64,000 bases of DNA. Source: Biomphalaria glabrata. Its lineage: Eukaryota. Of the stretch, positions 7,151 through 57,040 are shown piece by piece. The notes beneath the pieces are model-generated. The model ran no database searches. It saw nothing but the letters and a program-made list of their open reading frames with translations, and had not been told where the DNA came from. The stretch spans positions 29,796,340 to 29,860,339 of the forward strand of contig NC_074722.1 of the NCBI RefSeq assembly GCF_947242115.1. The letters are read 5' to 3'. The first letter of the stretch is position 1. Each line of letters begins with the position of its first letter. The translations under genes and the position numbers were made by a program.

Positions 7151-7564
7151 CAGGGCCGGCCCTAGCATTTGCTGGGCCCTATGCGAAACGGATCGCGCGG
7201 GGCCTAGTCTGGGTAGGGATAAGCATAATGTCAAAATTATTATTTTTTGAATTAGAAAATAGGCCTACTTTCGTCTTTGCAATAAATTTTTATCAAATGA
7301 AAGCTCGCAATGCCACTTTTTATTTATTGGCACCCCAAAACGTCAATTTCGTCGAATCTTCAGGAGATTTGAATAAATTCAAAAAAAGTTCAGGGCTTTA
7401 TCGTATATTTTGCCTTTTCATGAAATTTCCTGGAGGCCCTGAAAAATCAGGAGGTCCCGAAAACCCTGTTATTTTATATACGTTATAATTGTTTAATTTA
7501 ATAATATACACTTGGAATTAGCGCGGGGCCTATGAAAGCGCGGCGCCCACTGCGACCGGCACTG
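7151..7564. mobile_element. hAT-like MITE (414 bp) with TIR CAGGGCCGGCCCTAG / CAGTGCCGGTCGCAG (11/15) and a perfect 8-bp TSD TCTACTAG.
   Basis: TCTACTAG occurs at 7143-7150 and 7565-7572. The termini resemble the CAGTGGCG hAT family found elsewhere in the window. Confidence 0.65.
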
Positions 7565-8650: not shown

Positions 8651-9436
8651 ATTAGCACAGAATCTCCTTCATGCAGTGGAAAATTACGAATTTTTTGCCT
8701 ATCTTGAATTCTGGTCAAAGCTCCTGTGCCCAATTAATATAGTTCGAAAGAAACTACAAAAGTCTGGACTGCATATACGGGAATCTGCTAAAGAAATTAG
8801 TACCCTTTCATGCTTTCTGCAAAATGATGAGAAACTGACAAAAACCCAATCCATCGAAAAAGCAAAAGAAGGTAGTGAATACTATGGATTCCTTGTAATC
8901 AAAACAACCATATGAAAGAAAAGACTTGATGGGAAGTTGAGTTCTAATGTAGGACTGTCAATACAACTGCAATTCAAACGTGTTGCGACAGAAGTGCTGG
9001 ACAGATTTCATATGGAGATGAAGGGCAGATTCCAAAGGCTGGAAAGAAAATGGATACCTTTGGGTTTCTTCTTGAACCAAGACACCTGTTAGAAGACACG
9101 CTTGTGACAAACTGTGCTACTTTTCCTGTTTGTATGATGAAATAAATGGAAAATCGCTTTTTCAATGATGTCATTGATGCACGAGCACTTTTCATCAACA
9201 AACAGTAATACAATTACAATAAAAGAGTCTTGATGATTACTTTTTGTTAAGTTTACTGATATACTGAACCAATTTGATTTGGGGCTTATATATTTTTGCT
9301 TACATTATCTCATGTCATATGTCGAATGTCAAAATGCAAGGGGCCCCCAAAGAGGTCAATCCCCCCGGGCCCCCAAATCCCTAGTTACGCCCCTGGCAGG
9401 CGTCCATCCCCAACCATCCTGTAGGATAAAAGAAGG

Positions 9437-9672
9437 AAAAGTAATGTACTCCTTTCAGACCTTGTGGTCTGTAGGGCAGATGATGTAAAGGTCATCTGTT
9501 TCTGTGGCCTACAGTTTACGAGGTTGTAATGTGACCAGCACAACGACTCATTAGAGCTGGGTGGACTCAGAGGCTCCCAAAGATCCTGAAATTAAAAAAT
9601 CCCAGGATTTGAACCTGGGACCTCCAATTCGGAAGACAAGCGCTTTACCGCTCAGCCACCGCGCTTCGCCTG
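9437..9672 (-). mobile_element. tRNA-derived SINE (family 1).
   Basis: The reverse complement begins GGCGAAGCGCGGTGGCTGAGCGGTAAAGCGC...GGTTCAAATCCTGG, which carries A and B boxes, and continues into the conserved body ..tctgtttctgtggcc.. shared with the other family-1 copies. Confidence 0.75.
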
Positions 9673-11229
9673 TAGGATAATAACAAGAATAATCTTCATT
9701 TCTGAGGAAACATCCTAAACTTATCAAAAACAACCAACAATTGACAATTATATAAAAAAAATATATTAACAGATTCTAAGTAGTAAGACTAAGACTGCTT
9801 TATTGATCCTTATGGAAATTTGTTGTGATTACAAGGACTCTTTTCTCATATGCAGACAACACAACAGAAACATACACATAAGTAGAACAGACACAACATA
9901 AAGAGTTCATTCATCGACTACACACAGGCATCTTGGTCCTTTTCATGTTTTCTGATCGAAGGGTGGCGTTGATATAGTCTGACCGAGTAAGGAACGAACG
10001 AGTTTTTGTACCGCTCTGTACTTTCTTACATAATCATAGTACATACCGGCTACGCCTGTTGATTTGTTCCCAGGCTTTATATTGTTTCTTATAGCGTTCA
10101 CTCTCTGGAACCCCCATTCTGCTTTTTTTTTTTTTTAACTTGCGCATCGTATTTCTCGGACATTGACTTTTTACTTGATTTAAAAGACCCGCTTCATAAT
10201 GCGCCCCTGACACATACACGATCTCATATTTTGGGCCTGTTAATTTCAGTAACCCTTTGACTTATCCGCTTCACCCCCACCCCACCCCACCCCCGGCCAA
10301 AATTATTTTTAATGCTATTAGGATTGTGTTTTTTTTATAGGCGTCTAAAAAGAAGCGGAAATGACGCAAGACATTAAAAATAAGTAAACTTAGGAAAAAC
10401 GAAAAAAAATGCTATAAAAATACGAAATTTGTGAGACATTTTTTAATGCTTTATGTATAGACTGCGGTCTTTTTTTGGGGGGAAATACCGAAAATAAAAT
10501 ACAAAAGAGTTTTTGAAAAGCTCGCTGTTTTTCGCGAATAGCAGACGTCAGATTTGCGAATCTGTCATAATCGGTTCTTATTGAACGTCCTGGGGGTAAA
10601 AAGAAACTGCCTACGAAATTTCATGCGTATCCGTACTTTAAACTTAAAGATCGCAAGGTCTGAAAGAGGAACTTTGCCTGAATCTAGGTTTAATTATTAT
10701 CCAAGTACATTTAAAATAGCCCCAATGTTTCAAAAAGTACACTATTTTAAGTAAGGGACATTGTTTTGTCTTCTTCCGTTTAAGGGAGAGTCGTCTGCGA
10801 CAATATGAACTGGAAGAAAACACTTCGAAACGTCTCCGCTAACGTGATTCTTCTCGATCTACTTGTTTCAGAATCCTGGAAATTCTTCTGTCTGTAGTAA
10901 GACGTTATGCTAACAGCTTGTGTGTGACAAGCGCATACATCAGCGACAAGACGAAGCTGATCTTACGAATCAGGCTCATTACAGGCGTACGTGTGTTATA
11001 TACACCTTAAATGCCCTTCGCATCATAGCATTAGTCAGTGCTGCCTCTATCTTTATTAGACTAATTTGACCTGCAACAACCAGGATACGAGACTAAAATA
11101 ACCTAGACAGACAGACATATCTGGATAAGACATTTCTGAGTTATGAGTGCAAGAAAACATTTCAATATCGGTCCGTTCCTCCTTTTTTTAAAATTATATA
11201 TATATATAATTGACATGCGTCAAGAACAC

Positions 11230-11811
11230 ATATTAAATAGCTTCTACTTACGCTGCCTGCGGCGCATAATGTGCATATCCTGGAAGGATCATGTCTCCAA
11301 CCAGGAGGTTCTGAAACGGGCCAATATTCACAACATGTATGCTCTTCTTACACAGAGAAGACTACGCTGGCTCGGTCATGTCACTCGCATGCCAGATGGA
11401 AGAATACTTAAAGACATACTATACGCTGAGCTTGCAAATGGAGTCAGACCCAAGGGCCGCCCAAGACTAACCTACAGAGATGTCTGTGAGCGAGACATGA
11501 GAACCACGGGCATCGAACAAAGTATGTGGGAGGAGATATCCCAAGACCGGACAGCATGGAGACAGACTGTACGTGCTGGTACGAACTTCGCCGAGTGCAA
11601 AAGTAACGAAGCTGCATCAGTCAAGAGAAAGAAGAAGAAAGCTGCCTGTCAACTAGCCCTAAGTCAGATGCATATACATGCACGAACTGTGGCAAACTCT
11701 GCCGCTCCAGAATTGGCTTGATCAGTCACACCAGATTCTGCCCCGTCTCAAGACCAATCCAAAGCCAATGACTCACCTGGGCCCATCCATTGTCTTCCGA
11801 GACACAAGGAG

Positions 11812-19544: not shown

Positions 19545-19744
19545 GTGAGAATAGTGGATTGTTTGTTGTAGAAAATTGTAGATGTCCATGTGGTCAGTTG
19601 GTTGTACATTGTTGCAGTGCATAGCTGCATTATGTCCAATGCTGGCTGGTTGTGAGGCTAGCAGTTTAGAAAGCTGTTGATTGTGTTAAGATCAGTTCCT
19701 ATATCTCTGTAGGAATTATGGGATATTGTATGCAATAAACATTG

Positions 19745-19925
19745 CATTAGCTAGGGTTAGGGGAGGGGAGGTCCAAATTTGAAATTCCCCAAGACCCCCC
19801 ACTGGAGAAGGGCCCCCAAATGAGTGTCCGAAATTTGTTTTTACATTAAATATAATGCCATTATCTCATGTCATGATGATGAATGTCAAAATGCAGGGGT
19901 CATTAAAGAGGTCAAGCCCCCCAGG
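19745..19925. mobile_element. Internal fragment of the CAGTGGCG-family MITE, lacking both termini, in GLT1D1 intron 3.
   Basis: Contains gggcccccaaatgagtgtccgaaatttgtttttacattaaat...gtcaaaatgcaggggtc...aagaggtcaagcccc, homologous to the body of the element at 42112-42312. Confidence 0.65.
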
Positions 19926-20104
19926 CTGTAATTTTATTTATTAAAGGATATACAACATTTGCTTGAAAAAAATATCAGATATTTTTAAAACTGGAAAATA
20001 GTTGATGTTCTATTACAAAATAGATTCAGAACTTCATTGAATTTTTTTTTATATCATGTTTGTTTCTTAACTCAATGTTACAATATTTTATTCTTTAACT
20101 AAAG

Positions 20105-21184: not shown

Positions 21185-21460
21185 AGAAAAGTAAAGTTAA
21201 CCCTTTCAAACCTTGTGATCTATAGGGCAAATGACGTAAAGGTCATCTGTTTCTGTGGCCCATTGTTAATCAGGGTGTTATGTGCCCAACACGAGGACCA
21301 ACCGCCAAGACTTTTCTCCACCTAATATCAGGTACCCATTAGAGCTGGGTAGACTCAGAGGTCCCCAAAGATCCGGAAATTAAAAATCCCAGTCTTTACA
21401 AGGATTCGAACCCAGGTTTGGAAACCAAGCACTTTACCACTCAGCCACCACACCTCCTTT
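21185..21460 (-). mobile_element. SINE family 1 copy in GLT1D1 intron 5.
   Basis: Contains the conserved body aaaggtcatctgtttctgtggcc...gggtagactcagaggtccccaaagatccggaaattaaaaatccca...ggattcgaacccagg. Confidence 0.75.
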
Positions 21461-21464
21461 TGTA

Positions 21465-21720
21465 GTAAAGTTCCCCTTTCAGACCATAGGGTTGATGATG
21501 TTAAGGGCATCTGTTTCTTTGTCAAACCTTTAACGATCAGGCTGTCATGTGGCCAGCATAACGAACAACCGCCTTTACTTTCCCCAACTAAAGTCAGAGA
21601 CCATCAGAGTTGGGTGGACTCAAGCGCCCTAAAAATCTAGAAATTCAAAATCCCAGTCTTCACCGAAATTAGAACCCAGGACCTCGAGGTTTGGAAGACA
21701 AGCGCTTAACCACTCATCCA
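21465..21720 (-). mobile_element. SINE family 1 copy, in tandem with the previous one.
   Basis: Same architecture as the neighbouring copy. The tRNA-like head lies at 21650-21715. Confidence 0.75.
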
Positions 21721-22269
21721 CTGTGCCCCCCCAATTTCTCCATCATGCATAGTCTCTAGTGTTATTTTAGGTAGCAAGCAAAGTCCTTGGATTGAAATTA
21801 TGCACAGTCTTTAACACTCAACAATTACATACTTATTTTTTCTTTCAGTCTTTATACTATTTTTTCTGCAAACACTATCTATTTGTTAACTCCCTTATTG
21901 GAGCTTGACTTTTTATTTAATGCTGAATTATCTTATAAGTTACAGATGTTCCTTCAAATTAAAAGATATCCATGTTAATATACACCATAACTACATCTGA
22001 TATTACTAATTGTTGCGAGCAAATGAGACTCTTACTCATACACCAAGCAGACTCATCTATAGTAGATTATGAGGACTTTAATCTTGATTCAACAAATAAT
22101 AATATGTCAATAATAACCTCGTTTACATTACTCCATATTTGGATCCTTCTCTTCCAATACGCATTCGCTCCATTCCACATTCCCACTATGCTGCGCACGT
22201 AAAAGTCATATCTATACTATATTCTTTGTTTTATTTAAACCCATAAACATTTTGTTTATCACCTTACAG

Positions 22270-23588: not shown

Positions 23589-23614
23589 GTGATTTTTTTT
23601 CATTCAACATTGTT

Positions 23615-23760
23615 ATAAGTAAAGTGTTATAAGCATATTGGCTTAGTGGTAAAAGTGTTATAAGTATATTGGCTTAGTGGTAAAAGTGTTATAAGTATAT
23701 TGGCTTAGTGGTAAAAGTGTTATAAGTATATTGGCTTAGTGGTAAAAAGCGCTTGGCTTC
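23615..23760. repeat. 31-bp minisatellite, about 4.5 units (aagtgttataagtatattggcttagtggtaa), ending in a tRNA-like gcttagtggtaaaaagcgcttggcttc motif.
   Basis: Direct tandem repetition seen in the sequence. Confidence 0.85.
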
Positions 23761-24044
23761 TGAAAAACATTTGTTCAGTGGGTCAATTTAATTAATTCAT
23801 TTATTGGGTATGTTGCAGTCAATTTATTTCTTTTTAGTAGACTGTCCATTTATATTGGCCTAATATATAATTTAATTTTTTTTTGTATCAATTACAATTT
23901 TTATCAGTTAAATTTTGAAATTAGAAATATCTTTTAATCAAATTTATTTCAAGTATTTCACTTTTCAGTATAATGATCAGTACTGTATATTCCATTCATT
24001 AATATAACATGTATTTTATATATTATATTCTTTTGGGATTTTAG

Positions 24045-27244: not shown

Positions 27245-27672
27245 AGTCGTGAAACGACTATGGTTCATCTCGAACACTTTTGCATAAGGCTGTGGAGCCC
27301 TATTTTAGAGAGACACTCCCGTCCACATATATTGCATGTCAAGGTGGAGTTCGCTATGTGGTAGAGGAGCTGGCCATTTATCTTGTGGCACGCTTTTAAA
27401 GAATTGAGGCCCATGTTTTCTCGCTGTCTATAGCTTTCATGGTCACCGTCTCTCCAACTAGTGTGGTCTAAAGCTATGTCTTCCCAATGGTCAGTATCAA
27501 TGTTTACTGATTTTAAATCCCTTTTTATCACATCAACATAATGGAGGTGGGGGCGACCAGTTTTTCTTGAACCAGACGCAAGTTGCCTGTACAGAATGAT
27601 TCTCGGGATGCGATTGTCCCCCATCTGGCAAACATGTCCGAGCCAGCGCAGGTGGCGTTGCTTGATTGGATT
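27245..27672 (-). mobile_element. 5'-truncated L2/CR1-type LINE 3' end (ORF2 C-terminus with zinc finger CNICGRECLSKIGLHSLMQKC) plus a 3' stem-loop.
   Basis: Minus ORF 27265-27624 reads ...RHLRWLGHVCQMGDNRIPRIILYRQLASGSRKTGRPHLHYVDV...DHTSWRD. Confidence 0.75.
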
Positions 27673-30899: not shown

Positions 30900-32700
30900 T
30901 AAACAGGTAGGTCTTAATGTTCTTCTTGAAAGAAGTGAGCATGTTGTCTGTCTGAAATCAATGGCGAGTGAGTTCCAAACCTTTGGGCCGTAGCTTTTGA
31001 GGGAGAAACGTGGCACCACTAGAAGCGATGAGTCCTTTGGGCGTAGGGCTCTCTGAGGGACATGAAGTGATTAGTTCGCTAAGGTACAAGGGCATCTCAT
31101 TGTTATATATACACTGATGACAAAGTATGGCCACCTTGTAATCGATTCTTGCTTTCACGGGAAGCCAATGGAGCGTGCGCAAGAGCGTAGTAGCAGAATC
31201 TCGTCTTGTTTTTCTAAGGACTATTGTTATTCTATTTTGTCATCGGGTATACCTGCTAGCACGGCGTTGCAGTAGTCAAGGCGGAAGAGTATGAATGCCA
31301 CAGCTAGCTTTTTTGTTGACTCCGTTGTTAAATATGGTCGGATCTGGCCTAATTTGCGCAGCTGCAGATAAAGACCCTTGCAGAGCTGACTTATGTGAGG
31401 GTTGGTTAAAGGATAGTGTTGAGTCGAAGAAAACACCAATATTCCGCACTACATGGACAAAAGGAACCTGGCAGTTCGTGATAAAAAGAGAATCTGTGCT
31501 CTCGACTTTTGAGACGTTGTTCCGAGTGTCAATCTTAATTATTTCTGTCTTGTCTTCGTTCATCTTGAGTTTATTCTCAACCATTCAATCGCTCACCCTT
31601 GCAACGGTACCACTGATTTTCTCTGCCAGTTGCGACACCTCTGAGGGTACTGAGTAATCGTATAACTGTGAGTCATCGGCAAAGAAGTGGTATAAGATGC
31701 CGATTGGCCGTATGACACCGCTAAGTGGCTATGTATACATAGTGATCAGTACTGGGCCTAGAACTGATCATTGGGGTACTTCGTACTTCAAGAGTAAGCT
31801 TGTTGATTATTGATTAACAACGACACTTTGGGTGCGTTCAGTCAGGTAGGATATAAGCCACGTTAGAAGTAGAACTATTCCTGCTAAACCAAATGGGCAG
31901 AGAATCTGGCCATCATAATTTCGTGGCCTAGCGTATCAAAGTCTGCGGACAAGTCCAGCATTGAAAGAATTGAGATGTGGCCTATGTCGGAATTGTGAAG
32001 TAAGTCGTTTAGTACTCTGACCACTGCTGTCTCTGTGCTGCGGCACTTCCTATATGCAGATTGAAATTCTTCCAAGAGACAGTACTGTTCAAGATGAGAA
32101 AGAATTTGTGCTAACACGATGTAATCCAGACACTTTGACAGGAAGGGGAGATTTGATACCGGGCGATAGTTTTTTTTTAGACATTCCGGGTCAAGACTGG
32201 ATTTCTTTAATAAGGGCCTGACAAGTGCATGCTTAAACTGATGTGGTACAATGCCTGAAGTCAGTGAAGAGTTCACAATGTTAGAATTGTGGATACAAGC
32301 TCATCTAAACATTCAAGGATCAAGGAAGTTGGAATGGGATCAATGTCACATGACTTATTTGCCATCTTTAAAAATAATACTTTTGACATAATCTTCAGAG
32401 ACACGCTGAAACTCGCAAAAAGGAGAATTTTGAAAGATTGGAGAGTGGTCAAGCTGTGATGAGAGGGATGGCATGTCATTTGTAATCAGTTTAATCTTGC
32501 CAATGAAGAATCTATTGAAGGAATCAGGGAGTTCAGATGCTGGGATAGATGACGGCAAACGTTCGTTATTAGCTTCCCCTAACATTTCAGCGGTGATCCT
32601 AAACAGCTCCTTTGAAGAATCACAAGTTTCGATTTTGTGTCGAATATGACTAGCTTTTGCGTCTCTAATCATGCGGTTCACCTAGTTATTTTCTAGGATG
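30900..32700 (-). mobile_element. Degenerate L2-clade LINE. It carries RT domains including FADD and the C-terminal LHWLPVKARIDYKV...YLSELI tail.
   Basis: Minus ORFs read [16 protein letters not shown]...[10 protein letters not shown], then LYHFFADDSQLY, LNEDKTEII, RLDYCNAVLAGIP and LHWLPVKARIDYKVAILCHQCIYN. Frameshifts and stops are present. Confidence 0.75.
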
Positions 32701-38830: not shown

Positions 38831-39589
38831 TATTGATATGTGAACCCATTGTATATTATGTCGTACCATACTCTAATCTCAAATTTTATCATTAGTAAAT
38901 TTAAATGAAAAAGGGTTGTACCAGGTGGGAAGGGCGATATATGCAATTGCATTTCCCCCATCGGACAAACCAATACTTTTTCTTTTAGTATTATAGTTTA
39001 GAAATTACAAAATGTAAAAAATCTGCCACTACTATAATTTATATATACTATAAATTAAATTCTTATATCGAGTCGCCCTACTTTTTTTTTTTTATTCTTT
39101 AATGCCAAATGCAATCTTTAGCAGAAATTATTAAAGGAGCGAGGATTAATCGTTTTCATTCTACCGCCCCTCCCATTTCCAGAGTTTATGTAATTTCACA
39201 TGAATTTATCATAATTATTTTAAGAAAGACTTTGCATTGGAAAAGTTAGAATTCAAACGAAATTTTTCAGTATAAGAGTCATGATTGAGATGAGTTCTAA
39301 ACTCAAATAATATTTACATAGTCGCCTTTTCCCAACCTTTACTCAATCTGATATTTTTCTAGCTAATTAAATTTGGGACTATAACTCACAATTTATACTA
39401 GAGTTTTCTTGAATACTATTTATCGAATAAGTTTTTTTTCGGCGGCGATCCTCAAAGCCAAAATCTAAATATGTGGGGTATCTTATTTTTTCAAGGAACA
39501 AATCGGTTTTATTTGCAATGTATTAAGGGCCTATAAATTCATATTAGAATATCTTTCAAGGTCCTTTTTTTTTAATAGTATGAATAATG

Positions 39590-40440
39590 AGGTTTAGGTC
39601 AGGAGAATGCGTTTCTGCAGTGAAGAATGCAAGAAAACGCTTTTGTCCTTTCGGGCTTCGCACCTAACTCCATTGATGAATAATGAGCTGTAGATGTCAA
39701 GAAAATGCGTTTCTGCAGTGAAAAATGCAAGAAAACGCTTTTAGCGTCGGGGCTTCGCCTTGAACTTCATTGATGAATAATAAGCTGTAGATGTCAGGAG
39801 AATGCGTTTCTGTAGTGAAGAATGCAAGAAAACGCTTTTAGCGTCGGGGCTTCGCCTTGAACTTCATTGATGAATGATGAGCTGTAGATGTCAGGAGAAT
39901 GCGTTTCTGCAGTGAAGAATACAAGAAAACGCTTTTGGCGTCGGGGCTACGCCCCGAACTCCATTAATGAATAGTAAGCTTTAGATGTCAGGAGAATGCG
40001 TTTCTGCAGTGAAGAATGCAAAAAAACGGTTTTGTCGTCGGGGTTTCGCCCCGAACTCCATTGATGAATAATAAGCTTTAGATGTCAGGAGAATGCGTTT
40101 CTGCAGTGTAGAATACAAGAAAATGCTTTTGTCGTCGGGGCTTCGCCCCGAACTTCATTGATGTATGATGAGCTATAGATGTCAGGAGAATGCGTTTCTT
40201 CAGTGAAAAATGCAAGAAAATGCTTTTGTCGTCGGGGCTTCGCCCCGAACTTTATTGATGAATGATGAGCTTTAGATGTCAGGAGAATGCGTTTCTGCAG
40301 TGAAGAATGCAAGATAACGCTTTTGTCGTCGGGGCTTCGCCCCGAATTCCATTGATGAATAATAAGCTTTTAATGTCAAGAGAATGCGTTTCTGCACTGA
40401 AGAATGCAAGAAATTGCTTTTGTCGTCGGGGCTTTGCCCC
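39590..40440. repeat. Roughly 120-bp satellite, about 7 units, inside the TIR element.
   Basis: Unit aggagaatgcgtttctgcagtgaagaatgcaagaaaacgcttttgtcgtcggggcttcgccccgaactccattgatgaataataagctttagatgtc, with internal dyad symmetries (gcgtttct/agaaaacgc and ggggcttcgcccc). Confidence 0.9.
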
Positions 40441-40513
40441 AAACCCCACTAGGGAACCTTATCGCGTTGCCCCACTTTTTCGCCGAAGGTTGAGAAATGC
40501 TGCTTTTTAAAAT

Positions 40514-40708
<195 letters not shown>

Positions 40709-42111: not shown

Positions 42112-42312
42112 CAGTGGCGTAGCCAGGGTGGGGAAGAGGGGGAGAATTTGAAAATTCCCGGGGCCCTATTTGAAAGGGTTCCCCAAATGAGTGTTCGAAA
42201 TTGTTTTGTTTTTTACATTAAATTTTAAATATTACGCAAAATGCTGAGGGACCCCAAAGAGGCCAAGCCCCTCGGGCCCCCAAATGATGGCAAATTCCTA
42301 GCTACACCACTG
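42112..42312. mobile_element. 201-bp hAT-family MITE, reference copy. It has TIR CAGTGGCGTAGC(C/T)AGG and a perfect 8-bp TSD GTATTTGG.
   Basis: GTATTTGG occurs at 42104-42111 and at 42313-42320. The termini are cagtggcgtagccagg ... cctagctacaccactg. The element has an internal palindromic G/C-run core. Confidence 0.85.
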
Positions 42313-42540: not shown

Positions 42541-45416
42541 GTAGACAGCTCTATACACCTGAATTACATGTAATAAAAGCAAAGTTGCATGGAGAGGGGT
42601 GGGGGGGGGTGCTGCTTGTACGTATGCGATAATAAATCTTTTCATTGGAACAGACGTCAATCCTGGAAAGTGGAGTTACTTCTCTTCCAAAGGGAAATAA
42701 TTTGGAAGAATAATGTTTTGTTTTGTTGTTTGCTTGTTTTTAACGGTGAACGTCTATTGTAAACAGGGAATGTGTTGGCCTAAAGTAAACAATAGAGACA
42801 ACAAAATAGTTCTTTTTAAAACAGGCACTGCACACAAAAAAATTGTCACGTCTTATTATTAAATGAGTTTATTTAGTAATGTAAAATTTTATAAAGGAAA
42901 AGAAGCCTACATATCCTGATGGCTATGACTCCATTAAAATCCAACTGAATCGTTGCACTTCGCAATGGCAGTATAGAAAGAATAAAGTCTAAGACCACAG
43001 CACATCACACTTTTTTTTTTTTAAATATCCAAACTGTAGTTGAAAACTGTTTGATTTAACCGTGCCTAGACAATAACTATCTTACATACATATAAAAACA
43101 AAACTAAATCTTCAGTTCCCAAGTGTGTAGCATACACTGTACTCCGCTACATGTCCTATATAGTCATACACACAGTCACACAGACACTAGATCTAATCAA
43201 AACAGAGAATTAAATCTTAAGCTTTGTGGGTAACCCAGTATTTATGTTCGCTATTGACACAGCTAGCCTTACAGTATCAATAAATTACACCGCTTTTGCC
43301 CCTCCTAAGCTGATACTAGTGAAGCCCCGATCAAGTATTCTATTCAAGCGTTCCATTCGATACATGCGATGCCCTGAATTAAAATAAAAAAAAATTACTT
43401 GCCAACAAAATTCCACTTCCAAAGCATATACATATACGAACGAAATACAACATATGCTAATGAAAAAAAACTATGTATGTAGATGATTTATGCCTGTGTT
43501 TTTTTTTTTATTATTTTAATATATACAGTTCAAACTCTATACAAATCGTTACGAGTTTTTTTCCCAGGCTATAGATAGCACTGCCGCTGTCAAAAAAAAT
43601 TGTTTGTCTTTGTAAGTCGTCTGCTTGAGTTTGACACGTAAGTTTGTTGTGGTGGCCAAGATTGTCTCCCTTATGCTTTTGACAAATTTTATTCTTTCAA
43701 TAGAGATTATAAGTTCCGACTTTCAGGGGTAAGCAATCAGCGTTGCAGTTGATTAAATTTTAACAGACTACTAGCTCAATTGATCTTGTTCATAAGGGTA
43801 TACACTATCGTATGAAAGAAACAAACGTGTCGACAAAATAAAATCTATTCACATGAATGATAAAGGCACGGGGATATACAAATATGCACAGAGTTTAAAA
43901 ATAAAGAATATAATTCGTTTCGTTTTATTAATACTATAAACAGCACGACACCCGTTCTAATATATAAGTTTACCTTTATGAACAAATAAATAACGACAAA
44001 ATTCTTCTTTTATTCATATGAAACAAAACTTGACAGAGCCTTTTGCCAGGCCACAGATGTGACCAACAGGCAATACCTGGCAAGTTGAGGATTAATTTAT
44101 TTATTTACATTGAAATTTATGCCAAAAAAAAAAAAAGCTCACATATAATCACATAGCCTTTCCAGAGATTTCTGATACAGTTCGTTCGTTGTTTTTTTTT
44201 TTTGTTTTTTTTAATAAATTAAGAACTCTTCCACACTCATTGGTCGTCACTGAGAAGTACATTGAATTCATAAAGCGCTGGTTGTGAGTGTGTATGTGTT
44301 TCGTGTGTGAATGTTGTTCGTATTCGCATCTATATCGTTATTGTTACAGTAGTTACGCTGAGGTGGTCAATTGTAGTCAAACTGAATTTCTATTTGATTG
44401 GACCACTACAAATTATCTTTATCTTATTTCGGTGCTTCAGTACAACTAATAAAACGCTAACACTGATTTCAATTGTTACCTTATACACTCACATTTTCAC
44501 AAGGTTTTCAATTCTCCAAGGTGCTTGATTCTATAGTCTTAACGACACAGAAAATTACAGGGTTTTGTTATTTCTAGTAATGCCTGTGTTTTGTATTTAC
44601 GTTGATTGGCTACTGAGTCGTATATCTTGATTTCAAATTTACCGATAACAAACGAAAACTGATCAATATTTAAGAAATTAGGGTTCATAGCCTATTGATT
44701 TTTTGTCTACGATACGTGCGTTAAAATTTTTGATTAGAATTATCTGTTAGTATTTGATAAAGATTATTTTAAGCAGTGTTTACATAACTTTGAAATGCCT
44801 ATGATATTAACTGCAATGTGGGGATTGGAAGTGTTAGAAAATGCATCAATGCATATACTAGGCTCTACACATTAGCGCCCGAAGGGGGGTGCAAGGTGGT
44901 GAATACGGTTTCCGAGTGGCAAAATTCTAACCATTTTTTTTTTTTTTGCGACAAAGGGAAATTTGAGACTTTTAATTACAGTGGGGTCCAGGCGCCGTGC
45001 CTTGAGGTCTCGCTACTCCCCACCCGGCACCTTTTTTTTTCACCCTCCTCCAAAGCACAAGCAATTTTTTTTTCAATGATACATAGAAATTAAAGTCTCT
45101 ACTATAATATCTTTGATCATATCTTGATCTATGTGTTCGTGTAATTAGCATTCCGAGGGTCAGATTTACGGAGACACCTCGCTGTATTGAACTTAATTGA
45201 ACCGCTATGAATTGTTCGATAGGGTTGCAGTTTTATATACTTTTCACGTAGGGAGACTCCCAGTAAAACTAGTCAAGGGAAAGACAACTTGGAGAAGAAG
45301 AATGTAACGAATCGATCGTCCTGAACTCTACTAAGACTCTAAGACTAATCGATCGACGGATTTCGGATAAGATAATAAAAAAGAAGAAAATACAACGATG
45401 TAGACTTTTTAAAGCC

Positions 45417-45848
45417 GATTTTCTGTATTACAAGTTATAACTTGATTTTCTGTATAACAAGGTATAATTTGATTTTCTGTATTACAAAGTATAATTAATT
45501 TTCTGTATTACAAGATATAACTTGATTTTCTGTATAACAAGGTATAATTTGATTTTCTGTATTACAAAGTATAATTAATTTTCTGTATTACAAGATATAA
45601 CTTGATTTTCTGTATTACAAGGTATAACTTGATTTTCTGTATTACAAGGTATAATTTGATTTTCTGTATTACAAGGTATAACTTGATTTTCTGTATTAAA
45701 AGGTATAACTTGATTTTCTGTATTACAAGGTATAACTTGATTTTCTGTATTAAAAGGTATAACTTGATTTTCTGTATTAAAAGGTATAACTTGATTTTCT
45801 GTATTAAAAGGTATAACTTGATTTTCTGTATTAAAAGGTATAACTTAT
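45417..45848. repeat. 27-bp minisatellite, about 16 units (attttctgtattacaaggtataacttg), with a 3-unit higher-order repeat at the 5' side.
   Basis: Direct reading. The 124-aa and 84-aa ORFs across it are repeat artefacts. Confidence 0.95.
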
Positions 45849-45944
45849 TTACGTGAATGTCCAAACCACTAACGGAAATAATTTTATATTGAAGCACAAT
45901 TTGATAATTGGCTATTAAATCGCAATATAGCATCAAACTTTTTA

Positions 45945-47720: not shown

Positions 47721-48142
47721 AAAGTGATAAAAACAGAAACGAATAAAAAAGATTAAGGGACATAACTAATAAATCTACTATCGTGTGTATGATGGCCCAT
47801 TACCTCCCACAAATGCCCACAATACATTTTAAATTGAGGTGTCAACAAAGTGGTTTCCGGACAACTTTTGTGTCTACAAAGACAGGCAGGGCAACTAGTA
47901 AACAATCGCTCTTTGTGAAGCTACTGCAATATCACAGATCCATAGAGTTCTATACACCAAAGCAGTGGCGTAGCTAGAGTATATGATGCCTGGTGCGGTA
48001 CCTCATCTTGATGCCCCCCTCCCCCCCCCCCCAAAAAAAAAATTATTAGTAACATTGCAAAACCTTACTTTTTTGTTCAAAATAATATGTATTCATTAAT
48101 CAAATATTGTTAATTCAAAAAAATCACTTTTACATAAACATA

Positions 48143-49200
48143 CTATAAATAAATTTTACGCGCTTTCTTGCTGGCAAAAGTATCAATAATTTTATCAAAA
48201 TCAATTTTTTCCACCAGCTCTTGTTCAATGGACAAAATGGCCAAATTAGTGAGTCGTAAATTTGTCATCGTTGATCGCAAGTAATTCTTAATAAGTTTAA
48301 GTTTGGAAAAACTTCTCTCGCATGTAGCGACGCTTACTGCAATAGTCAAAAATAGGCGAATCATGATGACGATATTCGGGACTGAATCATCTAGCTGATA
48401 TTTTGTTATAAATTTCAAGAGCTCAAAAGGTCCTTGTTTTGGAAGTTAGGAGGCTTCTGATGAAACTGTGACAAACTGTTGAAGCCTCTTTCATTCCAGC
48501 AGAAATTCGTTTTTATCAATGTCGCTAGGAGTACTATCGAGATTGATTTCGACCTGAGGATTTAATAGCTGGGAAGGCGACAAAAATTCATATCTATCTG
48601 CTACACCATGAAGTTGCTCGAATCGGGAGATTATTTCTTGAACAATCCTGTCCAAGGTAGAATAAATTTCCCTTCGTAGCTCTTCTTTGTGTGTAAGTAC
48701 AGAGTCGTCACTTTTCTCACCAGGCATCTTTTTCTTATGGCCGATACGTTTTTGAGGTTCTGTACTGATTCTCAGATCTGAACACACGCTTTCGGCAAAG
48801 GTAATGCTGGCTTCAGCGATGTCCTCTCGATTAATACTTTAAAATGTCTCTAGTTTTTAGTTTGAGTGAACAGTCTTGAATAGACAATCCTTGTTTTTGA
48901 AGGTAGAATTGCGCATCATTAATTTCAGTTAATACAGGAGCCCAAAATCCAAGATAGGTGAGAAAATTAAAAGACTGAATAACAACCAATAATCCACCTG
49001 CTTCAGATCTAGTCGATGAATATTCATCTCTGCTAGTTAATGTCTCCAGAGTTTCTATAATTTTAGAAAATGTATCCCTAACGATCTTGACGGCTTCTCC
49101 TCTGGCGCTCCAGTGGGTCTCAACTAGACGTTTAAGGTTAGTTCAGGTTATTTTGATGAGGATATCCCAGCGGTGTGTTGAAGTTGAGAAAAAGGAGTGT
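48143..49200 (-). pseudogene. hAT transposase C-terminal half, frameshifted remnant. It contains the hATC dimerisation domain (ATCERSFSKLKLIKNYLRSTMTNLRLTNLAILSIE) and a T(R/H)WSARGEAV region.
   Basis: ORFs 48143-48418 and 48491-48787 plus broken frames up to about 49200. The ..THWSARGEAVKIVRDTFSKIIETLE motif is typical of hAT transposases. Confidence 0.75.
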
Positions 49201-49739
49201 GAACGGTCCAGTGTACCAAAAAATGACAAGGCCTAAAGTTTAATAACATTCTTTTCTTTGGTGGGAAAGGTTGAGATGAAGTTATGCTCTTAGGTTTATT
49301 TGATTCATTGTTGATACCTACATTACAATACTCTGATGAATTACGAGTTATCTGTATTCAGTGCTTTATGTTTTTGCATTTTATGATTTTACATTGCAAA
49401 TTTTGAAATGTTTTAGTATATTTTATTCTTTTTGACTGTTGTTTAATTATTACTGTATTGTGTACACTGTGCTGATGGTTCAGCTTCTTCAGTAGGAATG
49501 TTTGAGGAGTGTACTAGAAACATGCTTGTGTGCTGGCTGTCCTTTAGTCTCTAGAACCTGCGGTATTGAAGTAGTTTCTTCTTTTTCATCATTCAGGATG
49601 TCGGCCTCATCATTTTTTTTCTGGATTCAATGATAACCGTCTCATCTTGCTTTGTTGCTTTTAATTGTTCAGTTAATTCATACCCAATAACAGCTCGCCT
49701 ATAGTCGGTGGACTCTGGCAATGATGTGACTTGAAATTG

Positions 49740-50850
49740 TCTCGATACTTCTTTAGACTTAAGAAATTTAAGAAACGCACCTCACTGCGGTCAAAGAAAC
49801 TGCTTTATGCGGATGACATTGCCCTCTGGTCAACCGGGAAGAAAGCCGACTAAATGCATGCGGCTTTACAAGCAGACCTCCAAACCATCTCCTCGTATTG
49901 CGACAAATGACAGATTCAGATAAACGTTACCAAAACGACCTGGTCCCTGTTCAGCCTAGGGATCGACATTCTTAAGGCTCTATTCGAGCTTCAACTCGGT
50001 GGGCTGAGACTCCAACGTGAAAACATGCCAAAATATCTAGGGGTGACCCTGGATAGAAAACTGACAATGCTCCAGCACGTCCAGGAAGTTGAAAGAAAAG
50101 CCTCGGAGAAGTTAGCGTTACTAAGAAAGCTGGCCAGCACAAAGTGGGGTGTCAAAGCTAACATGCTACGCACAGTGTACTTAGGGGCAGTCAGATCACA
50201 AATTGAGTACAGCTATACAGTTCAAGTATATGCTAGTAAAACTGCCCTCGAATCACTCGACTGAGTACAATTACAGGCACTAAGGTTCATTTGTGGCACC
50301 TTTCTGACAAGCCCAACAAACGCTGCTGAAATCTTAACAAACATGGCCCCTTTACATTTAAGGAGGGAGAGGGCGGTACTTACGGCCTACGAGCGCTACA
50401 AAAGGGGCGACTCTAGGCTACCCACCACAATCTTAGTGCAACAATGGAGAGAGAGGAACCGCATTAAAATGCGATCGTTCCTCCACATTGCGACCAATTT
50501 GTCAAAATCAGCTGGGCTCTCCACTGATAGAATTCCTACTAGGAGAATTAGTACTTGCCCTGCGTGGAGGAGATTGCCGGCCCCACAAACAAACATGTCC
50601 CTTATAGGGCAAGAGGGAGCCACCAAGAGGCGATTAACATCTGCCATACTCCAAAACTTGGCATCAGCTACACTAAAGTCCTACCCATCAGATACCATTT
50701 TCTACTATACCGATGGGTCGGTAATGAGGGACCCCGATAGATCTGGGTATGGGGCCCTTATAGTCTACCCAGACCGGAAAGAACCAGAGATGCCGATTTC
50801 TCCATCTGAGCTTAAAAGGGCTTTGAGGCGCCAGCCAGACTAGTCAGTCT
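49740..50850 (+). mobile_element. I/R1-like non-LTR retrotransposon fragment (RT motif YADD, then RNase H IFYTDGS) nested inside the hAT element.
   Basis: Reads LLYADDIALWSTGKKAD, then MPKYLGVTLDRKLTMLQHV...WGVKANMLRTVYLGAVRSQIEYS, then ..TIFYYTDGSVMRDPDRSGYGALIV. Contains stops and frameshifts. Confidence 0.7.
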
Positions 50851-51552
50851 TGAGCACTGTTCATCATTTTGTTTTACGTTACAGTATTACAATTAACTAC
50901 TTAGTTTAAAAAATAAAACTCGTAGAAAACAAAGGTTAGCTTATTTAAAAATATTGACATTACAATAGAATTATTTCCAAAATTAAACTTTAAAGAATCA
51001 TAAAGAAATGAATAAACTAAGACAATTATTTAGAGCTAGAGTTTAGAAATATATTTGTAAACTCTATATCTAGATTAAACCAATGGACTAAACAATGAAG
51101 TAAAAAAAGGTTGGCCTATCTTCTTCTTCTTCTTTATATTACAGAGCATTGATCAGTGTAGTAACAACATGTACCGTGTGTCCGAAATAAATCTAGTAAA
51201 TTAGATACAAACTGTTCTATAGCTTACATTGTATGGAAGAAATAGTCAAGGAGATGAAACAAAATAGCAACATGACTAGTTTATAAATCGTTAATTCATG
51301 TTTAAAATACAGTAGTTTGTTCGTGTCCATACAGTTAGTTGTTTTTACTGAAAAGCTCATGGAAATAGAAAATTAATACACACTGTGTGAATTTTGGTGC
51401 CCCTCTCCACTTGGTGCCCTGTGCGGCCCGCACCACCCGCACATTGGTAGCTACGCCACTGCACCAAAGAGTGAAGTATTACCCTCCCTTCTTTAGAGTA
51501 GGCCTAAACTACACTAATATTTCTGAAATAGAAGATTTCCCTCACCCCTTTT

Positions 51553-51811: not shown

Positions 51812-53245
51812 TCAAGCCCATCCTTTAAAAACAATTTTTCCATCACTGTTGAATGTGCTGTAGAGATCATGAGATTCATGGGAACTATTCATTACTATCG
51901 AATTGAAATACTTCATGGCGAGATTCTTGTTGTAAAGTGAATCCCGTGGTAGCTCTTTAATGTACTTCCGGTTCCACTCTGACCTGGTGGCATTGTGGGA
52001 TGTGTACAGAGCTGTTACAGTTCGGCCAACGTTTATCACCAGGTGGCCCAGCGTTCTAGAACGCGCTATCAAAAACGGAACCAGGGCGTCGTCGTCGATG
52101 ATTAAAGGTGGAACGTCTGACATGTCTTGCTTGGTAAACACGAAATACACGAAAGCAGCCTGAGGGTTTTCCCACTCGTAGCTCCCTCTGGTGTAGGCCA
52201 GCAGGTTGAGCTCGTACAAGTCCGCAGCGCTACTGAGCTTTTGGTAATGCATGGCTTCCCCGTACATCGCGATAGGCTTCGAGGTGGGAAATCGGTTAGA
52301 TTTAGATTTTTCGTTCTGCGAGGACTTGACTAGGATCTCTTTGACGCCTAAGAGTGACTCTAGAAAGGACGCGTCGAATACACTTGTGGCCTTGACGTAG
52401 CCGTAAAACGTAGCGCTAAACTTTTCCATCACAACCTTGGCCATATTTTGAAAAATGGGAAGGCCTCCAGAACTGTAACCCGGCACCGGAAGACAGGTGA
52501 AGTTCATGGCGTTGGCGTTAGCCATAGTCATCCTGCTGTCCGTAAAGATGATGGTTTCGACGAATGGTCGAACCCGCTTGCAGTTTTCCAGTAGCAGCTT
52601 TCTGCTGAACTTGTCCACGTCCACCAAGTAGTCAGGCCACCAAGTGAATAGAAGCAGTAAATACGGCTCAGCCTTTATTGTGATGTCTTCAAAGAGTTTG
52701 AGTAAACGCGGACAGAAGTTTGCGTCGACTGTCCTTTTCACTAGTTGTCGAGTTCTGGAAACGTTGTAGCACAGGTGTTTACGTAAATACCCAGGATTCA
52801 CCGAAGAAACTATTTTCGTAATATTGGAAACGGGTGGAAGAACCTTATAGTTGGCAGTTATATTTCCTGAAATCGACACGTTGCTCTCGGGGATAGACAA
52901 CCCCATGCCTTGCGCAATGTCTATGTTGTATTGAACATCCGTGCAAATGACGTCCAGTTTTGACTTCAAGCAGTGGTCTTTCAGCTTGGGCCCTCTTTCC
53001 CGCTGAGCCCAAACGATTTCAATGTCGTTTTGGAACTGTTTCAGCACGAGCTCCCTGGAAACGTGGCTCCTTTCCAGTTCATTGTAGGGCACCAACGGCG
53101 TTTTAAGTCGAAAGGCCCAAAGCTTGTTCCTTACAAAACTAATAATAAAAGACCCGCTCAGAAGTAGAAATACAAAAAGAATCGGTAGTGAAAATCTCAG
53201 TAATCGAAGCAGTACTCGCTGGATAGACATCTTCTGAAAATTCAA
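51812..53245 (-). CDS. Intronless 477-aa type-II membrane protein (N-terminal signal anchor, luminal domain with about 9 N-glycosylation sequons). Glycosyltransferase-like with a DxD-type motif (PPLIIDDDALV). Family not assigned.
   Basis: The ORF track gives a continuous 1434-nt ORF, far above chance in about 35% GC DNA. The TM segment FSLPILFVFLLLSGSFIISFV follows a short basic cytoplasmic tail. Sequons NVS, NIT, NFT, NAT and NSS are present. A FTWWPDY motif is present. No canonical sulfotransferase PAPS-binding motifs were found. Confidence 0.6.
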   Translation of the reverse strand: MNFQKMSIQRVLLRLLRFSLPILFVFLLLSGSFIISFVRNKLWAFRLKTPLVPYNELERSHVSRELVLKQFQNDIEIVWAQRERGPKLKDHCLKSKLDVICTDVQYNIDIAQGMGLSIPESNVSISGNITANYKVLPPVSNITKIVSSVNPGYLRKHLCYNVSRTRQLVKRTVDANFCPRLLKLFEDITIKAEPYLLLLFTWWPDYLVDVDKFSRKLLLENCKRVRPFVETIIFTDSRMTMANANAMNFTCLPVPGYSSGGLPIFQNMAKVVMEKFSATFYGYVKATSVFDASFLESLLGVKEILVKSSQNEKSKSNRFPTSKPIAMYGEAMHYQKLSSAADLYELNLLAYTRGSYEWENPQAAFVYFVFTKQDMSDVPPLIIDDDALVPFLIARSRTLGHLVINVGRTVTALYTSHNATRSEWNRKYIKELPRDSLYNKNLAMKYFNSIVMNSSHESHDLYSTFNSDGKIVFKGWA

Positions 53246-53434: not shown

Positions 53435-53665
53435 AAAAGTTCCCCTTTCAGACCTTGTGGTCTGTTTTTTGTGGCCTACGGTTAACAAGGGTGTCATGTG
53501 GCCAGCACAACAGCAACCAACCGCCTTTACTTTTTCCCAATTAATGTCAGGTACCCCTTAGAGCTGGGTAGACGCGAAGATCCCGAAATTAAAAATCCCA
53601 GTCTTGACCAGGATTCGAACACCGGTCCCCGGTTCGGAGGCCAAGCGCTTTACAGCTCAGAAACC
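53435..53665 (-). mobile_element. SINE family 1 copy.
   Basis: Contains ..ccttgtggtctg..tgtggcctacggttaacaagggtgtcatgtggccagcacaac...gggtagacgcgaagatcccgaaattaaaaatcccagtcttgaccaggattcgaac... Confidence 0.75.
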
Positions 53666-54004
53666 GCGCCTCATTTTAATTACTGATTCTAAGCTATTAT
53701 CTCCAGAGCTTTGTATTAAGGTTGTTTCCAACAGTTTAAATAGGCATAAAGTACTGACATGGTTGGGGAGGGAGCTCTAAAGCTTTTTTTTCACGTTTCT
53801 CTTACCTAATGTTGCACTTTCGACATGAATATCTGAACGTACTTGATTTGATAGCCATATTATGGCCCATATTATATTTAGGTGACTCGCGAAAAAAAAA
53901 ATTTCTTAAGAATATGTAAGCAATTTTTTTTCTAGAATACATTAATTATAGCAAGAAAATCTATTCGAAATAATCTCCAGTTCCTAAGGGCGCGTTAGCT
54001 GACT

Positions 54005-55110: not shown

Positions 55111-55879
55111 AAATAGTGTTGATGAATGAATGAATGGAAGAAAAGGCCAACATATTCACGTGCATTAGGTTGAATATTAATTCTATTGAAGCCACTAAGC
55201 CAATACAAGAAAGTGTGTTGCACTGCTAGAAGGTTTCCTTAATATATTTAATATGATATATATCTTTCTCTGTCACGAAGACTTCTAGATTGGTCACTAT
55301 AGCCATCTTAAAGGTCTCATCCAGTGTGAATCTCACCCATAGTGTCCCATTTGAGTTTTTGTTTCTACTTTCTTCCTTGTTTAGTTAAAGCCACGCCACT
55401 GTTTTTTTTTATAATTTTTTTTTGACATGAGTCCAAAAGGACATGAAGCCTGATAGCCTTTTCTAAATTTATTGATTTGCCCTATAGCTGTTACTGGTCG
55501 TTGACTTGTAGCACCAAACTGATGGTAGACAACTAAACCGTTGTAGGCGTAATATAACTAGTAGGCTAAACGTGAAAAAAAACACTTCAATAACTTTCTT
55601 TTGTGAACAAAACTAAATAAAACTTTATAATATAGACAAAACCAACTTGTGATAAATTAAATAAATGTAGCAGACTTTAGTAATAATATCTTTTAGCAAA
55701 ATCTAACACACTACAATAACACAACCTTTCAGTCTCATGTTCTGGAGTCGTCTTCTCAACTCAGACCAAATGACGACATTGCCACCTATGTTGCATCATT
55801 CACAACCAATCGCTAACCTCTTCAACCGTCACCATAGAAACACACACACACACACACTCCATAACACCCATGCATACTT

Positions 55880-56045: not shown

Positions 56046-56527
56046 ATACATGTGGTTCAACAATAAAGTAGTGCTGGGTGTGTTTTAACATCGATCTTTC
56101 GTTGTAATGAGTGTTCATCTATCGATTAACATTGTCGCCTTCATCTCATACATGTGTTGAGACCTACTTTTTGGGGGTGAGAAAAAAAAAAAGGAATGTT
56201 TAATTTTCGCATCGCGATGTTTTATAAGTTTCTAAAAAAAAAAAGACGTTTCCCTTGTAAGCTTATTTGTTATGAATATTTAAATATGTATACACGATGG
56301 CTTACATAGTACAACACTAGGGCGTAAGTCTCCCAAAGAAACGTTATTCAACATAATTACTAGGATACGAAATGTTATACATTTTTATTTAGTTTCTAAA
56401 TGCTATTATTTCATCATCATCATCATCATCTGTTCATTGTGCTCCTCTTGGAACCTAGGGCCTCAGTAAAAAATACACCACTCACCACCTTCTCTTGCTT
56501 CCCAGCTCTTTCCGGACCTCTAGGTTC

Positions 56528-56760
56528 CACGACAATTCGTTCACTGACAAATCGTTCACGACTTTTCGTTCACGCGACTATTCGTTCACCAGACATTTCG
56601 TTCACCCGACTATTCGTTCACGCGACTATTCGTTCACCCGACATATCGCTCACCGACAACTTGCTCACAGACAACTTGTTCACGACAATTCGTTCACACG
56701 ACAAATCGTTCACTGACAATTCGTTCACAGACTAATTGTTCACAGACAAATCGTTCACTG
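56528..56760. repeat. Tandem array of about 20-bp units containing CGTTCAC, about 12 units (array A).
   Basis: Unit ...attcgttcac(n10-12). ORFs 56400-56735 and 56495-56716 are artefacts. Confidence 0.9.
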
Positions 56761-56910: not shown

Positions 56911-57040
56911 ACCGGGTGAACGAATAAACGCGTGAACGAATTGTAGGGTGAACGAATTGTCTGGTGAACGAAAAGTAGCGTGAACGAAAAGTCGTGAACG
57001 ATTTGTCGGTGAACGAAATGTCAGTGAACGAATTGTCGTG
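56911..57040. repeat. Inverted copy (array B, GTGAACGAA units) of the first roughly 120 bp of array A. Together they form a foldback-like inverted repeat with a spacer of about 265 bp.
   Basis: The reverse complement of 56911-57040 aligns at about 85-90% identity with 56528-56645. Confidence 0.8.

Follow-up and report, generated by a model that had tools for sequence, protein, structure and literature searches.

The structure at positions 47963–51461 of the window (the 64,000-nucleotide stretch of Biomphalaria glabrata DNA analyzed here) is very probably, as a whole, a defective, non-autonomous hAT copy of 3,499 bp, putatively of the Tip100 group (DUF4371-type). It arrived downstream of the gene LOC106051547 by a hAT-type cut-and-paste insertion, in which a staggered 8-bp cut at the target duplicated CACCAAAG. 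The 14-bp repeats at its two ends are intact, as are short subterminal motifs. No working enzyme is encoded, since all that survives of the transposase gene is the C-terminal ~62%, as a pseudogene. The interior is a mosaic of this transposase remnant, a 1.03-kbp LINE piece in the opposite orientation, and ~1.2 kbp of DNA without assignment. Any movement of such a copy would depend on a related transposase acting in trans; mobilization of Tip100 in trans requires just ~100 bp of each end (PMC12511174). The observation itself is confirmed as real and correctly recognized in the preliminary description: this is an ordinary, broken hAT copy. Its importance is low: it is a textbook non-autonomous copy in a genome rich in transposable elements. 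For annotation, its value is that one Tip100-type family of B. glabrata now has defined ends, namely a terminal inverted repeat (TIR) and subterminal motifs.

Element boundaries and host locus

The boundaries, perfect 14-bp TIR, and perfect 8-bp target-site duplication (TSD) given in the preliminary description were all confirmed by direct reading of the window sequence. The left TIR (CAGTGGCGTAGCTA; 47963–47976, plus strand), which adjoins the 3′ end of the transposase gene, is complementary at 14 of 14 positions to 51448–51461, where the right TIR (minus strand; TAGCTACGCCACTG as read on the plus strand) is its exact reverse complement. Outside them, two unstranded copies of CACCAAAG (47955–47962 and 51462–51469) match at 8/8 positions. 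The element thus has two hallmarks of hAT transposons, the 8-bp TSD and a short TIR starting with CAG or TAG; hAT TIRs are ~5–27 bp long (PMC3517528). The left subterminal non-coding region (47977–48145, no strand assigned) has GGTGCGG at 47992–47998 and, at about 48014–48041, a stretch rich in C that gives way to an A(10) tract. Toward the other end, the internal and right subterminal DNA (50811–51447, no strand assigned) gave no coding match and has no other copy in the window; it carries GGTGCC, GTGCGG, and GCACCA motifs at 51396–51443, and presumably represents the original element's non-coding 5′ end. Within the outermost 150 bp on the two sides, TGGTGC/GCACCA and GTGCGG/CCGCAC occur four times each; neither occurs in the 3.2-kbp interior. 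GGTGCGG lies in inverted orientation at 28–30 bp from each element end.

Repeats are generally abundant in the window, and this is the sole support for the idea that an inverted and a direct repeat came to surround unrelated transposon debris by chance. That explanation is vanishingly improbable and effectively refuted: chance should produce only ~2e-4 cases per window of 14-bp inverted repeats that lie within 10 kbp and are bordered by an 8-bp direct repeat, and the TIR is a Tip100-type sequence. Moreover, 183 bp separate the left TIR from the transposase 3′ end, a distance similar to the 224 bp of a mite relative, and the window has two further elements with near-identical TIRs, each with a perfect 8-bp TSD. 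The TIR pattern (allowing ≤2 mismatches) was found at seven places in the window, compared to 0.13 expected.

The neighboring open reading frame (ORF) corresponds to B. glabrata LOC106051547 over 473/473 residues, and the element starts 343 bp downstream of its stop codon; an exact-protein look-up of this host ORF found no record. The reconstructed empty site (CTATACACCAAAGAGTGAAG) has no paralogue anywhere in the window. At the orthologous locus of Bulinus truncatus (L002), the alignment (67%) is confined to the coding exon, and the locus is therefore unusable as an empty-site test. LINEs make up 12% of the B. glabrata genome (PMC5440852). Transposable elements altogether account for ~45% of its DNA.

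A truncated transposase pseudogene

The hAT transposase pseudogene occupies 48146–49232 on the minus strand (Pfam, tblastn, and profile HMM evidence) and has four in-frame stops and one frameshift near 48850. Based on tblastn and the profile HMM, it represents positions 228–591 of a 593-position DUF4371-type hAT transposase profile. The C-terminal dimerization domain typical of hAT (hATC), which the preliminary description had placed on the minus strand, is present within it at ~48218–48460 (minus strand; Dimer_Tnp_hAT, PF05699: E 1.3e-12, 47.8 bits, cut-off 21.4), and so is its T(R/H)WSARGEAV motif, in the form ETHWSARGEAV (49089–49121, minus strand). The check it had proposed, a search of the minus strand against hAT transposases for Dimer_Tnp_hAT and DUF4371, returned matches with tblastn, profile HMM, and Pfam; the first domain was found, but DUF4371 is wholly absent. 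A total of 587 homologues were identified at E ≤ 1e-5, and PF05699 occurs in nearly all of the 120 listed. The best of them is 51% identical to the remnant (E 2e-105), the closest full-length relatives are ~46–51% identical, and among the 120 matches listed from the protein collection none exceeds ~68% identity and none is from B. glabrata. One relative, in L001, has a C-terminal part 68% identical to the remnant, while it has no DNA similarity to the element and no clear terminus could be seen close to its gene. No identical record turned up in exact-protein look-ups of four element ORFs, a phmmer search against PDB gave no match, and a profile search gave a weak, marginal link to the Hermes transposase (E 0.03).

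The loss of N-terminal sequence had been put at half of the transposase; the loss stands, and its extent is ~38%, including the entire DUF4371 domain and the CxxH motif. In the full-length homologue P0010, DUF4371 spans residues 15–214 and a CSNHSLNL motif lies just upstream of residue 252, where the remnant begins. The profile HMM found profile positions 1–227 nowhere in the element. Because these positions are absent and the remainder contains four stops and a frameshift, the copy is non-autonomous: it has neither the complete RNase-H-like DDE core nor the intact ORF of an autonomous element, and the part of the catalytic core coded by the ~227 missing positions is lost, as the absence of the DUF4371 region and CxxH motif indicates. 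Non-autonomy leaves membership of the hAT superfamily unaffected. Other superfamilies with 8-bp TSDs (e.g., P elements) were rejected, as the hATC domain and a TIR of the Tip100 type speak against them.

Placement within the hAT superfamily

Judging from TIR likeness and the domain make-up of homologues rather than from a phylogeny, the element probably belongs to the Tip100 group (DUF4371-type). Its terminus (CAGTGGCGTAG) is identical at 9/11 positions to CAGGGGCGGAG, the TIR of Tip100 from morning glory (Ipomoea purpurea; PMC12511174). Full-length homologues of the remnant carry DUF4371 and hATC, like the transposase of the Tip-group element BuT2 (PMC3942097). Similar ends were also found in other relatives, with CAGTGGCGTG as the terminus of the mite relative and CAGTGGCGGCGCGA as the TIR of a metagenomic relative; the TIR core CAGTGGCG is present in the relatives L003 and L004. 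This core, common to several phyla, is a clade-wide signature. Searching the literature for the TIR sequence gave no match, and the available portion of the supplements to the B. glabrata genome paper (PMC5440852) contained no list of hAT families. The Buster group has the TSD consensus nnnTAnnn (PMC3517528), and a central TA is missing from all three window TSDs (CACCAAAG, GCAGGCGT, and GTATTTGG), with the small number of sites (n = 3) limiting this comparison. As evidence against the Tip placement, one homologue has a Pfam domain named for the Buster-derived FAM200/ZBED5 proteins.

The LINE fragment and the origin of the mosaic interior

An internal fragment of an I-superfamily LINE ORF2 lies at 49779–50810 on the plus strand (3′ limit 50790–50845; RVT_1, BLASTP, and tblastn evidence) and contains three in-frame stops. 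The piece is ~1.03 kbp long (tblastn limits 49779–50807) and comprises the C-terminus of the reverse transcriptase (RT) from the YADD motif onward, a linker, and RNase H up to about its residue 38, that is, the order of RT followed by RNase H that is expected of I-superfamily ORF2. The match to the C-terminal part of RVT_1 (E 2e-6, 28.1 bits) is slightly below the 29.6 cut-off; P0132 ties the same YADD region to PF00078. The piece is collinear with residues 1–247 of the B. glabrata protein LOC129925234 (P0121; RNase_H 210–342, zf-RVT 398–439), with 88% identity in BLASTP and 86% in tblastn. Exact-protein look-ups of P0121 and P0135 found no record. The preliminary description of a nested I/R1-like RT/RNaseH fragment therefore holds for its I-superfamily affiliation, RNase H content, and opposite orientation, but the piece does not abut the transposase remnant: they are separated by a 546-bp spacer (49233–49778, no strand assigned), which matches neither hAT profiles nor LINE proteins and is not repeated elsewhere in the window.

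The LINE piece is truncated at both ends. It stops inside RNase H at ~50810, without most of that domain, the zf-RVT knuckle, or a poly(A) tail, and no flanking duplication was seen, in contrast to the tail and TSD of a 3′ end produced by target-primed reverse transcription. The LINE sequence is thus a fragment, not a discrete insertion, and since its 5′ and 3′ ends are both missing it is not a simple nested retrotransposition. Internally deleted derivatives of the Ds type, from Ac and from other hAT or P elements, can carry filler DNA from abortive gap repair. We slightly favor a similar origin here, in which the LINE piece would be filler copied into a deleted element as its gap was repaired, prior to the last transposition; the LINE could instead have inserted and been trimmed afterwards by deletions.

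The latter origin is part of a broader account, decay in place, in which an autonomous hAT element inserted and became a mosaic only afterwards: its 5′ half received a LINE by retrotransposition, and the N-terminal coding region and both LINE ends were lost in deletions. Nested LINE insertions are common where LINEs constitute 12% of the DNA (PMC5440852), and the ~6–8% decay of the coding remnants (see below) is statistically compatible with the bound set by the intact TIR and TSD. With decay at its point estimates, however, the 22 paired terminal positions would be free of mismatches with a probability of only 0.03–0.07. The fragment also lacks its 3′ end, RNase H and zinc-knuckle regions, and poly(A), and shows no TSD of its own. 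To our knowledge, target-primed reverse transcription always keeps the 3′ regions and poly(A) of a LINE, and decay in place therefore needs at least two further deletions. Taken together, we regard decay in place as a serious but somewhat doubtful alternative to insertion of an already defective copy. The inserted copy probably has no host function; that its antisense LINE piece feeds small-RNA silencing of I-superfamily LINEs is an unlikely possibility.

Relationship to the MITEs, age, and activity

The 3.5-kbp copy had been proposed as the source family of several MITEs in the window, which was not borne out by the alignments. A 201-bp MITE (42112–42312) and a decayed copy near 19740–19940 align to both subterminal regions of another element at 6450–9395, whereas blastn with the two 300-bp ends of the 3.5-kbp copy hit neither the MITE nor the 6450–9395 element. 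The copy has just the 14-bp TIR in common with the MITEs and the 6450–9395 family, and the transposase remnants of the two larger elements are 29% identical. By an 80-80-80 style comparison, in which similarity has to extend past the TIR into subterminal or internal sequence, the 3.5-kbp copy and the MITEs fall into separate families, and the MITEs derive from that of the 6450–9395 element. The near-universal terminus CAGKGGCG is insufficient alone for sorting elements into families.

The same results bear on the earlier reading of a recently active hAT family, parent of the MITEs, with a very recent insertion. The perfect TIR and TSD speak for it, as do the perfect 8-bp TSDs of the two other window elements with near-identical TIRs. 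Nonetheless, a full match over the 22 paired TIR and TSD positions limits post-insertion divergence only to below ~6.4%, a bound that overlaps the decay of the two coding remnants (~6–8%; 95% CI ~1–20%), and neither recent activity nor a young age is established by it. Further arguments against this reading are the different affiliation of the MITEs, the 29% identity of the transposase remnants, the distribution of the TIR core over several phyla, the 14–30% divergence among copies of the MITE family, and the lack of a close intact transposase among the listed protein-collection matches. The B. glabrata genome paper likewise reports that intact transposases are lacking and that DNA transposons have not invaded recently (PMC5440852). 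We therefore consider this reading improbable, and it is still more unlikely that the family of the 3.5-kbp element remains mobile in B. glabrata. Only in that case would the element be of wider interest: strains would differ in the presence of this insertion, which lies just downstream of LOC106051547 or within its 3′ UTR, a chromosome-level assembly would contain an intact Tip100-type transposase, the published view of the snail genome would be contradicted, and an endogenous, possibly usable hAT system or marker would exist in a schistosomiasis vector.

Comparison with known systems

Within hAT, SPIN falls on the Buster/Charlie side. The SPIN-like hAT of B. glabrata (PMC5440852) shares the superfamily and the host genome with the present element, which differs in its Tip100-type TIR and in TSDs without a central TA. 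Parallels also exist with Tip100, which has the same TIR type, and with the Tip group (BuT2, AeTip100-2, and hAT-4_BM): all have 8-bp TSDs, the transposase lineage of the Tip group likewise combines DUF4371 with a hATC dimerization domain, and non-autonomous deletion derivatives and MITEs mobilized in trans are known there as well (PMC12511174, PMC3942097). Compared to the Tip group, the snail copy is without the N-terminal ~38% of its transposase, the rest is a pseudogene, and its nearest full-length relatives are only ~46–51% identical. I-superfamily LINEs of B. glabrata (Nimbus/BgI, Ingi-type; PMC5440852, PMC11203168) have the same ORF2 order of RT, RNase H, and zinc knuckle, of which just an internal 1.03-kbp piece, ~86–88% identical to P0121, is found here. 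Finally, the copy resembles Ds-type derivatives in its intact ends, in an interior partly replaced by unrelated sequence, and in its need for transposase in trans, and differs from them in that the putative filler consists of a 1-kbp LINE coding fragment and ~1.2 kbp of other DNA, possibly captured before transposition.

Structure and coding capacity of the 3.5-kb copy

The 3.5-kb copy (47963-51461; 3,499 bp) is a real, correctly delimited and ordinary non-autonomous hAT element of the Tip100 type that contains a LINE fragment. Read directly from the sequence, its left terminal inverted repeat (TIR) is CAGTGGCGTAGCTA (47963-47976, plus strand), its right TIR is the exact reverse complement (51448-51461), and both are bordered by the target-site duplication (TSD) CACCAAAG (47955-47962 and 51462-51469), as the preliminary description had it. 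From window base composition, an inverted repeat of 14 bp bordered by a direct repeat of 8 bp, both free of mismatches and lying within 10 kb, would arise ~2e-4 times by chance, and the TIR pattern (≤2 mismatches) occurs seven times in the window vs. 0.13 expected. A hAT-type insertion of the whole unit generated the TSD, a step that we regard as demonstrated. TGGTGC and GTGCGG each have four occurrences across the outermost 150 bp of the two ends and none in the 3.2-kb interior, and GGTGCGG lies 28–30 bp from either end in inverted orientation; the TGGTGC/GTGCGG subterminal motifs look like candidate transposase-binding motifs.

A hAT transposase remnant (48146-49232, minus strand) was identified by a Pfam match, tblastn (five homologous proteins as queries) and a profile HMM of 16 full-length homologues. 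Its reconstructed translation matches Dimer_Tnp_hAT (E = 1.3e-12; 47.8 bits, cut-off 21.4), and searching with it gave 587 homologues at E ≤ 1e-5, of which the top listed entries are 46–51% identical and are named 'zinc finger MYM-type protein 1-like' or '52 kDa repressor of the inhibitor of the protein kinase-like'. Full-length homologues among the matches listed carry DUF4371 and hATC domains, and ETHWSARGEAV (49089-49121) is the counterpart of their ETRWSARxxAV. Both the minus-strand dimerisation domain and the T(R/H)WSARGEAV motif noticed earlier are thus borne out by homology. The remnant has four in-frame stops and one frameshift near 48850, and spans profile positions 228–591 of 593; positions 1–227 had no match in the copy or the whole window, even at E = 10. 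An N-terminal loss had therefore been recognized correctly, and 'half' overstates it. In P0010, a full-length mite homologue, DUF4371 occupies residues 15–214 and a CSNHSLNL motif immediately precedes residue 252, at which the remnant starts. By this layout, the N-terminal portion of the catalytic core is missing from the copy, and no active enzyme could be encoded there even if the stops were removed. The 3.5-kb unit is thus incapable of making a transposase for itself. To move, hAT elements require their TIRs, about 100 bp at either end, and transposase acting in trans. Tip100 is an example of this end requirement and of trans-acting transposase (PMC12511174).

The LINE ORF2 piece (49779-~50810, plus strand) is collinear with LINE ORF2 fragments, matching RVT_1 positions 143–205 (E = 2e-6) and residues 1–247 of P0121, the LINE ORF2 fragment protein of B. 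glabrata LOC129925234 (88% identity by BLASTP, 86% by tblastn). Given the P0121 domain positions (RNase_H, residues 210–342; zf-RVT knuckle, 398–439), the match limits indicate that the piece comprises the last part of the RT domain, then the linker, then no more than the first ~38 residues of RNase H. The reported I/R1-like RT/RNaseH fragment opposite to the transposase therefore exists, with little of its RNase H and 546 bases away from the remnant. Those bases (49233-49778) and the 640 bases from the piece to the right TIR matched nothing tested. The piece contains three in-frame stops and lacks a 3′ end and poly(A) tail. Since it is truncated on both sides, we infer that simple nested retrotransposition does not account for it. 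The reading we favor, as somewhat more probable, is that an element with an internal deletion acquired it as filler in the course of repair, ahead of the last jump. Less likely is that the LINE inserted in place and was afterwards trimmed by at least two deletions.

The 22 paired TIR and TSD positions show no mismatches, bounding post-insertion divergence per copy below ~6.4% (95%). Stop-codon load suggests neutral decay of ~7.7% for the hAT remnant and ~6.0% for the LINE remnant (95% intervals roughly 1–20%). Together, these estimates slightly favor decay before the last transposition over decay in place but are too broad to tell one from the other, and the young insertion that had been read from the intact TSD is not shown by them. 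Recent activity is likewise unsupported: no close intact transposase was present among the protein-collection matches listed, and according to the genome paper, no intact transposase was detected and the DNA transposons did not invade recently (PMC5440852).

Other elements and the host gene

Another hAT-type element (6450-9395; 2,946 bp) has TIRs CAGTGGCGTAACTA and CAGGGGCGTAACTA and a perfect 8-bp TSD (GCAGGCGT). Apart from a short transposase remnant (8655-9065, plus strand; profile positions 305–441), which shares only 29% identity with its counterpart in the 3.5-kb copy, the element is a mosaic. Inside it, ORF 7725-8150 has a C2H2 finger and resembles a retroelement tail by eye, and 8184-8645 (minus strand) is integrase-like without a Pfam match. 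Two MITE copies, one of 201 bp carrying the TIR and a perfect 8-bp TSD, GTATTTGG (42112-42312), the other decayed and recognized by alignment (~19740-19940), both align to both subterminal regions of 6450-9395 (70–86% identity). The ends of the 3.5-kb copy have nothing in common with 6450-9395 or either MITE beyond 14 bp. On these alignments, both MITEs arose by deletion from members of the 6450-9395 family, and the 3.5-kb copy does not represent their source family, as had been proposed. A solitary TIR-like end, CAGTGGCGTGGCTT (55388-55401, minus strand), for which no partner was found, could belong to a truncated element or have arisen by chance.

The 3.5-kb copy ends 343 bp downstream of the stop codon of LOC106051547, whose single-exon coding region (51812-53245, minus strand; 477-codon ORF) matches at 473/473 residues, confirming that the window is B. 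glabrata. On the strand of the gene, an AATAAA precedes the insertion site by ~80 bp. The predicted protein, 474 aa long with a hydrophobic segment at its N-terminus, has no domain in a Pfam search and has orthologues in Bulinus (56%) and Lymnaea (43%); outside the exon, the Bulinus locus is too diverged to use in comparison. Elsewhere in the window, tandem arrays have units of 97 bp (39556-40534), 27 bp (45361-45898), 31 bp (23590-23775), and 16 bp (56503-56760 with 56913-57029), the last (CGACTATTCGTTCAC-like) having an inverted partner 272 bp away with 90% complementarity. A short interspersed repeat (21368-21456, 21632-21729, 53577-53672, 9628-9667) with tRNA-like motifs (GGATTCGAACC..., ...GCGCTTTACCGCTCAGCCACCGCGC) is probably a tRNA-derived SINE; ARAGORN found no tRNA genes in the window. 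Retroelement debris (31884-32276, minus; 11143-11721, plus; 27265-27624, minus) includes one RT fragment (RVT_1, E = 3e-8); the other two pieces are ORFs like LINE ORF2 C-terminal tails (RLRWLGHV...R.PK motif, by eye only).

Placement among hAT groups

The TIR of the 3.5-kb copy is identical at 9/11 positions to the 11-bp Tip100 TIR, CAGGGGCGGAG (PMC12511174), and BuT2, a Tip-group member, has the DUF4371 and hATC domains (PMC3942097) of the remnant's homologues. Among relatives, the P0010 locus (L003, Galendromus mite) has the terminus CAGTGGCGTG 224 bp after the stop codon, and in L004, a distant eukaryotic relative from a JGI metagenome, a 621-aa transposase is flanked on both sides by a perfect 14-bp TIR (CAGTGGCGGCGCGA). 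The core CAGTGGCG marks the ends of both DUF4371-type elements (L003 2084-2093, minus strand; L004 2758-2771 and 6365-6378). Because of these termini, the TIR likeness, the domains, and TSDs without a central TA, we file the copy, on sequence criteria, in the Tip100 group. The terminus is conserved across phyla, from plants to snails, so that shared termini here mark the same hAT group and not the same family. The Buster TSD consensus has a central TA (PMC3517528), which none of the three window TSDs (CACCAAAG, GCAGGCGT, GTATTTGG) shares. The TIR of Tip100 from morning glory resembles the terminal core of the snail, mite, and metagenomic elements.
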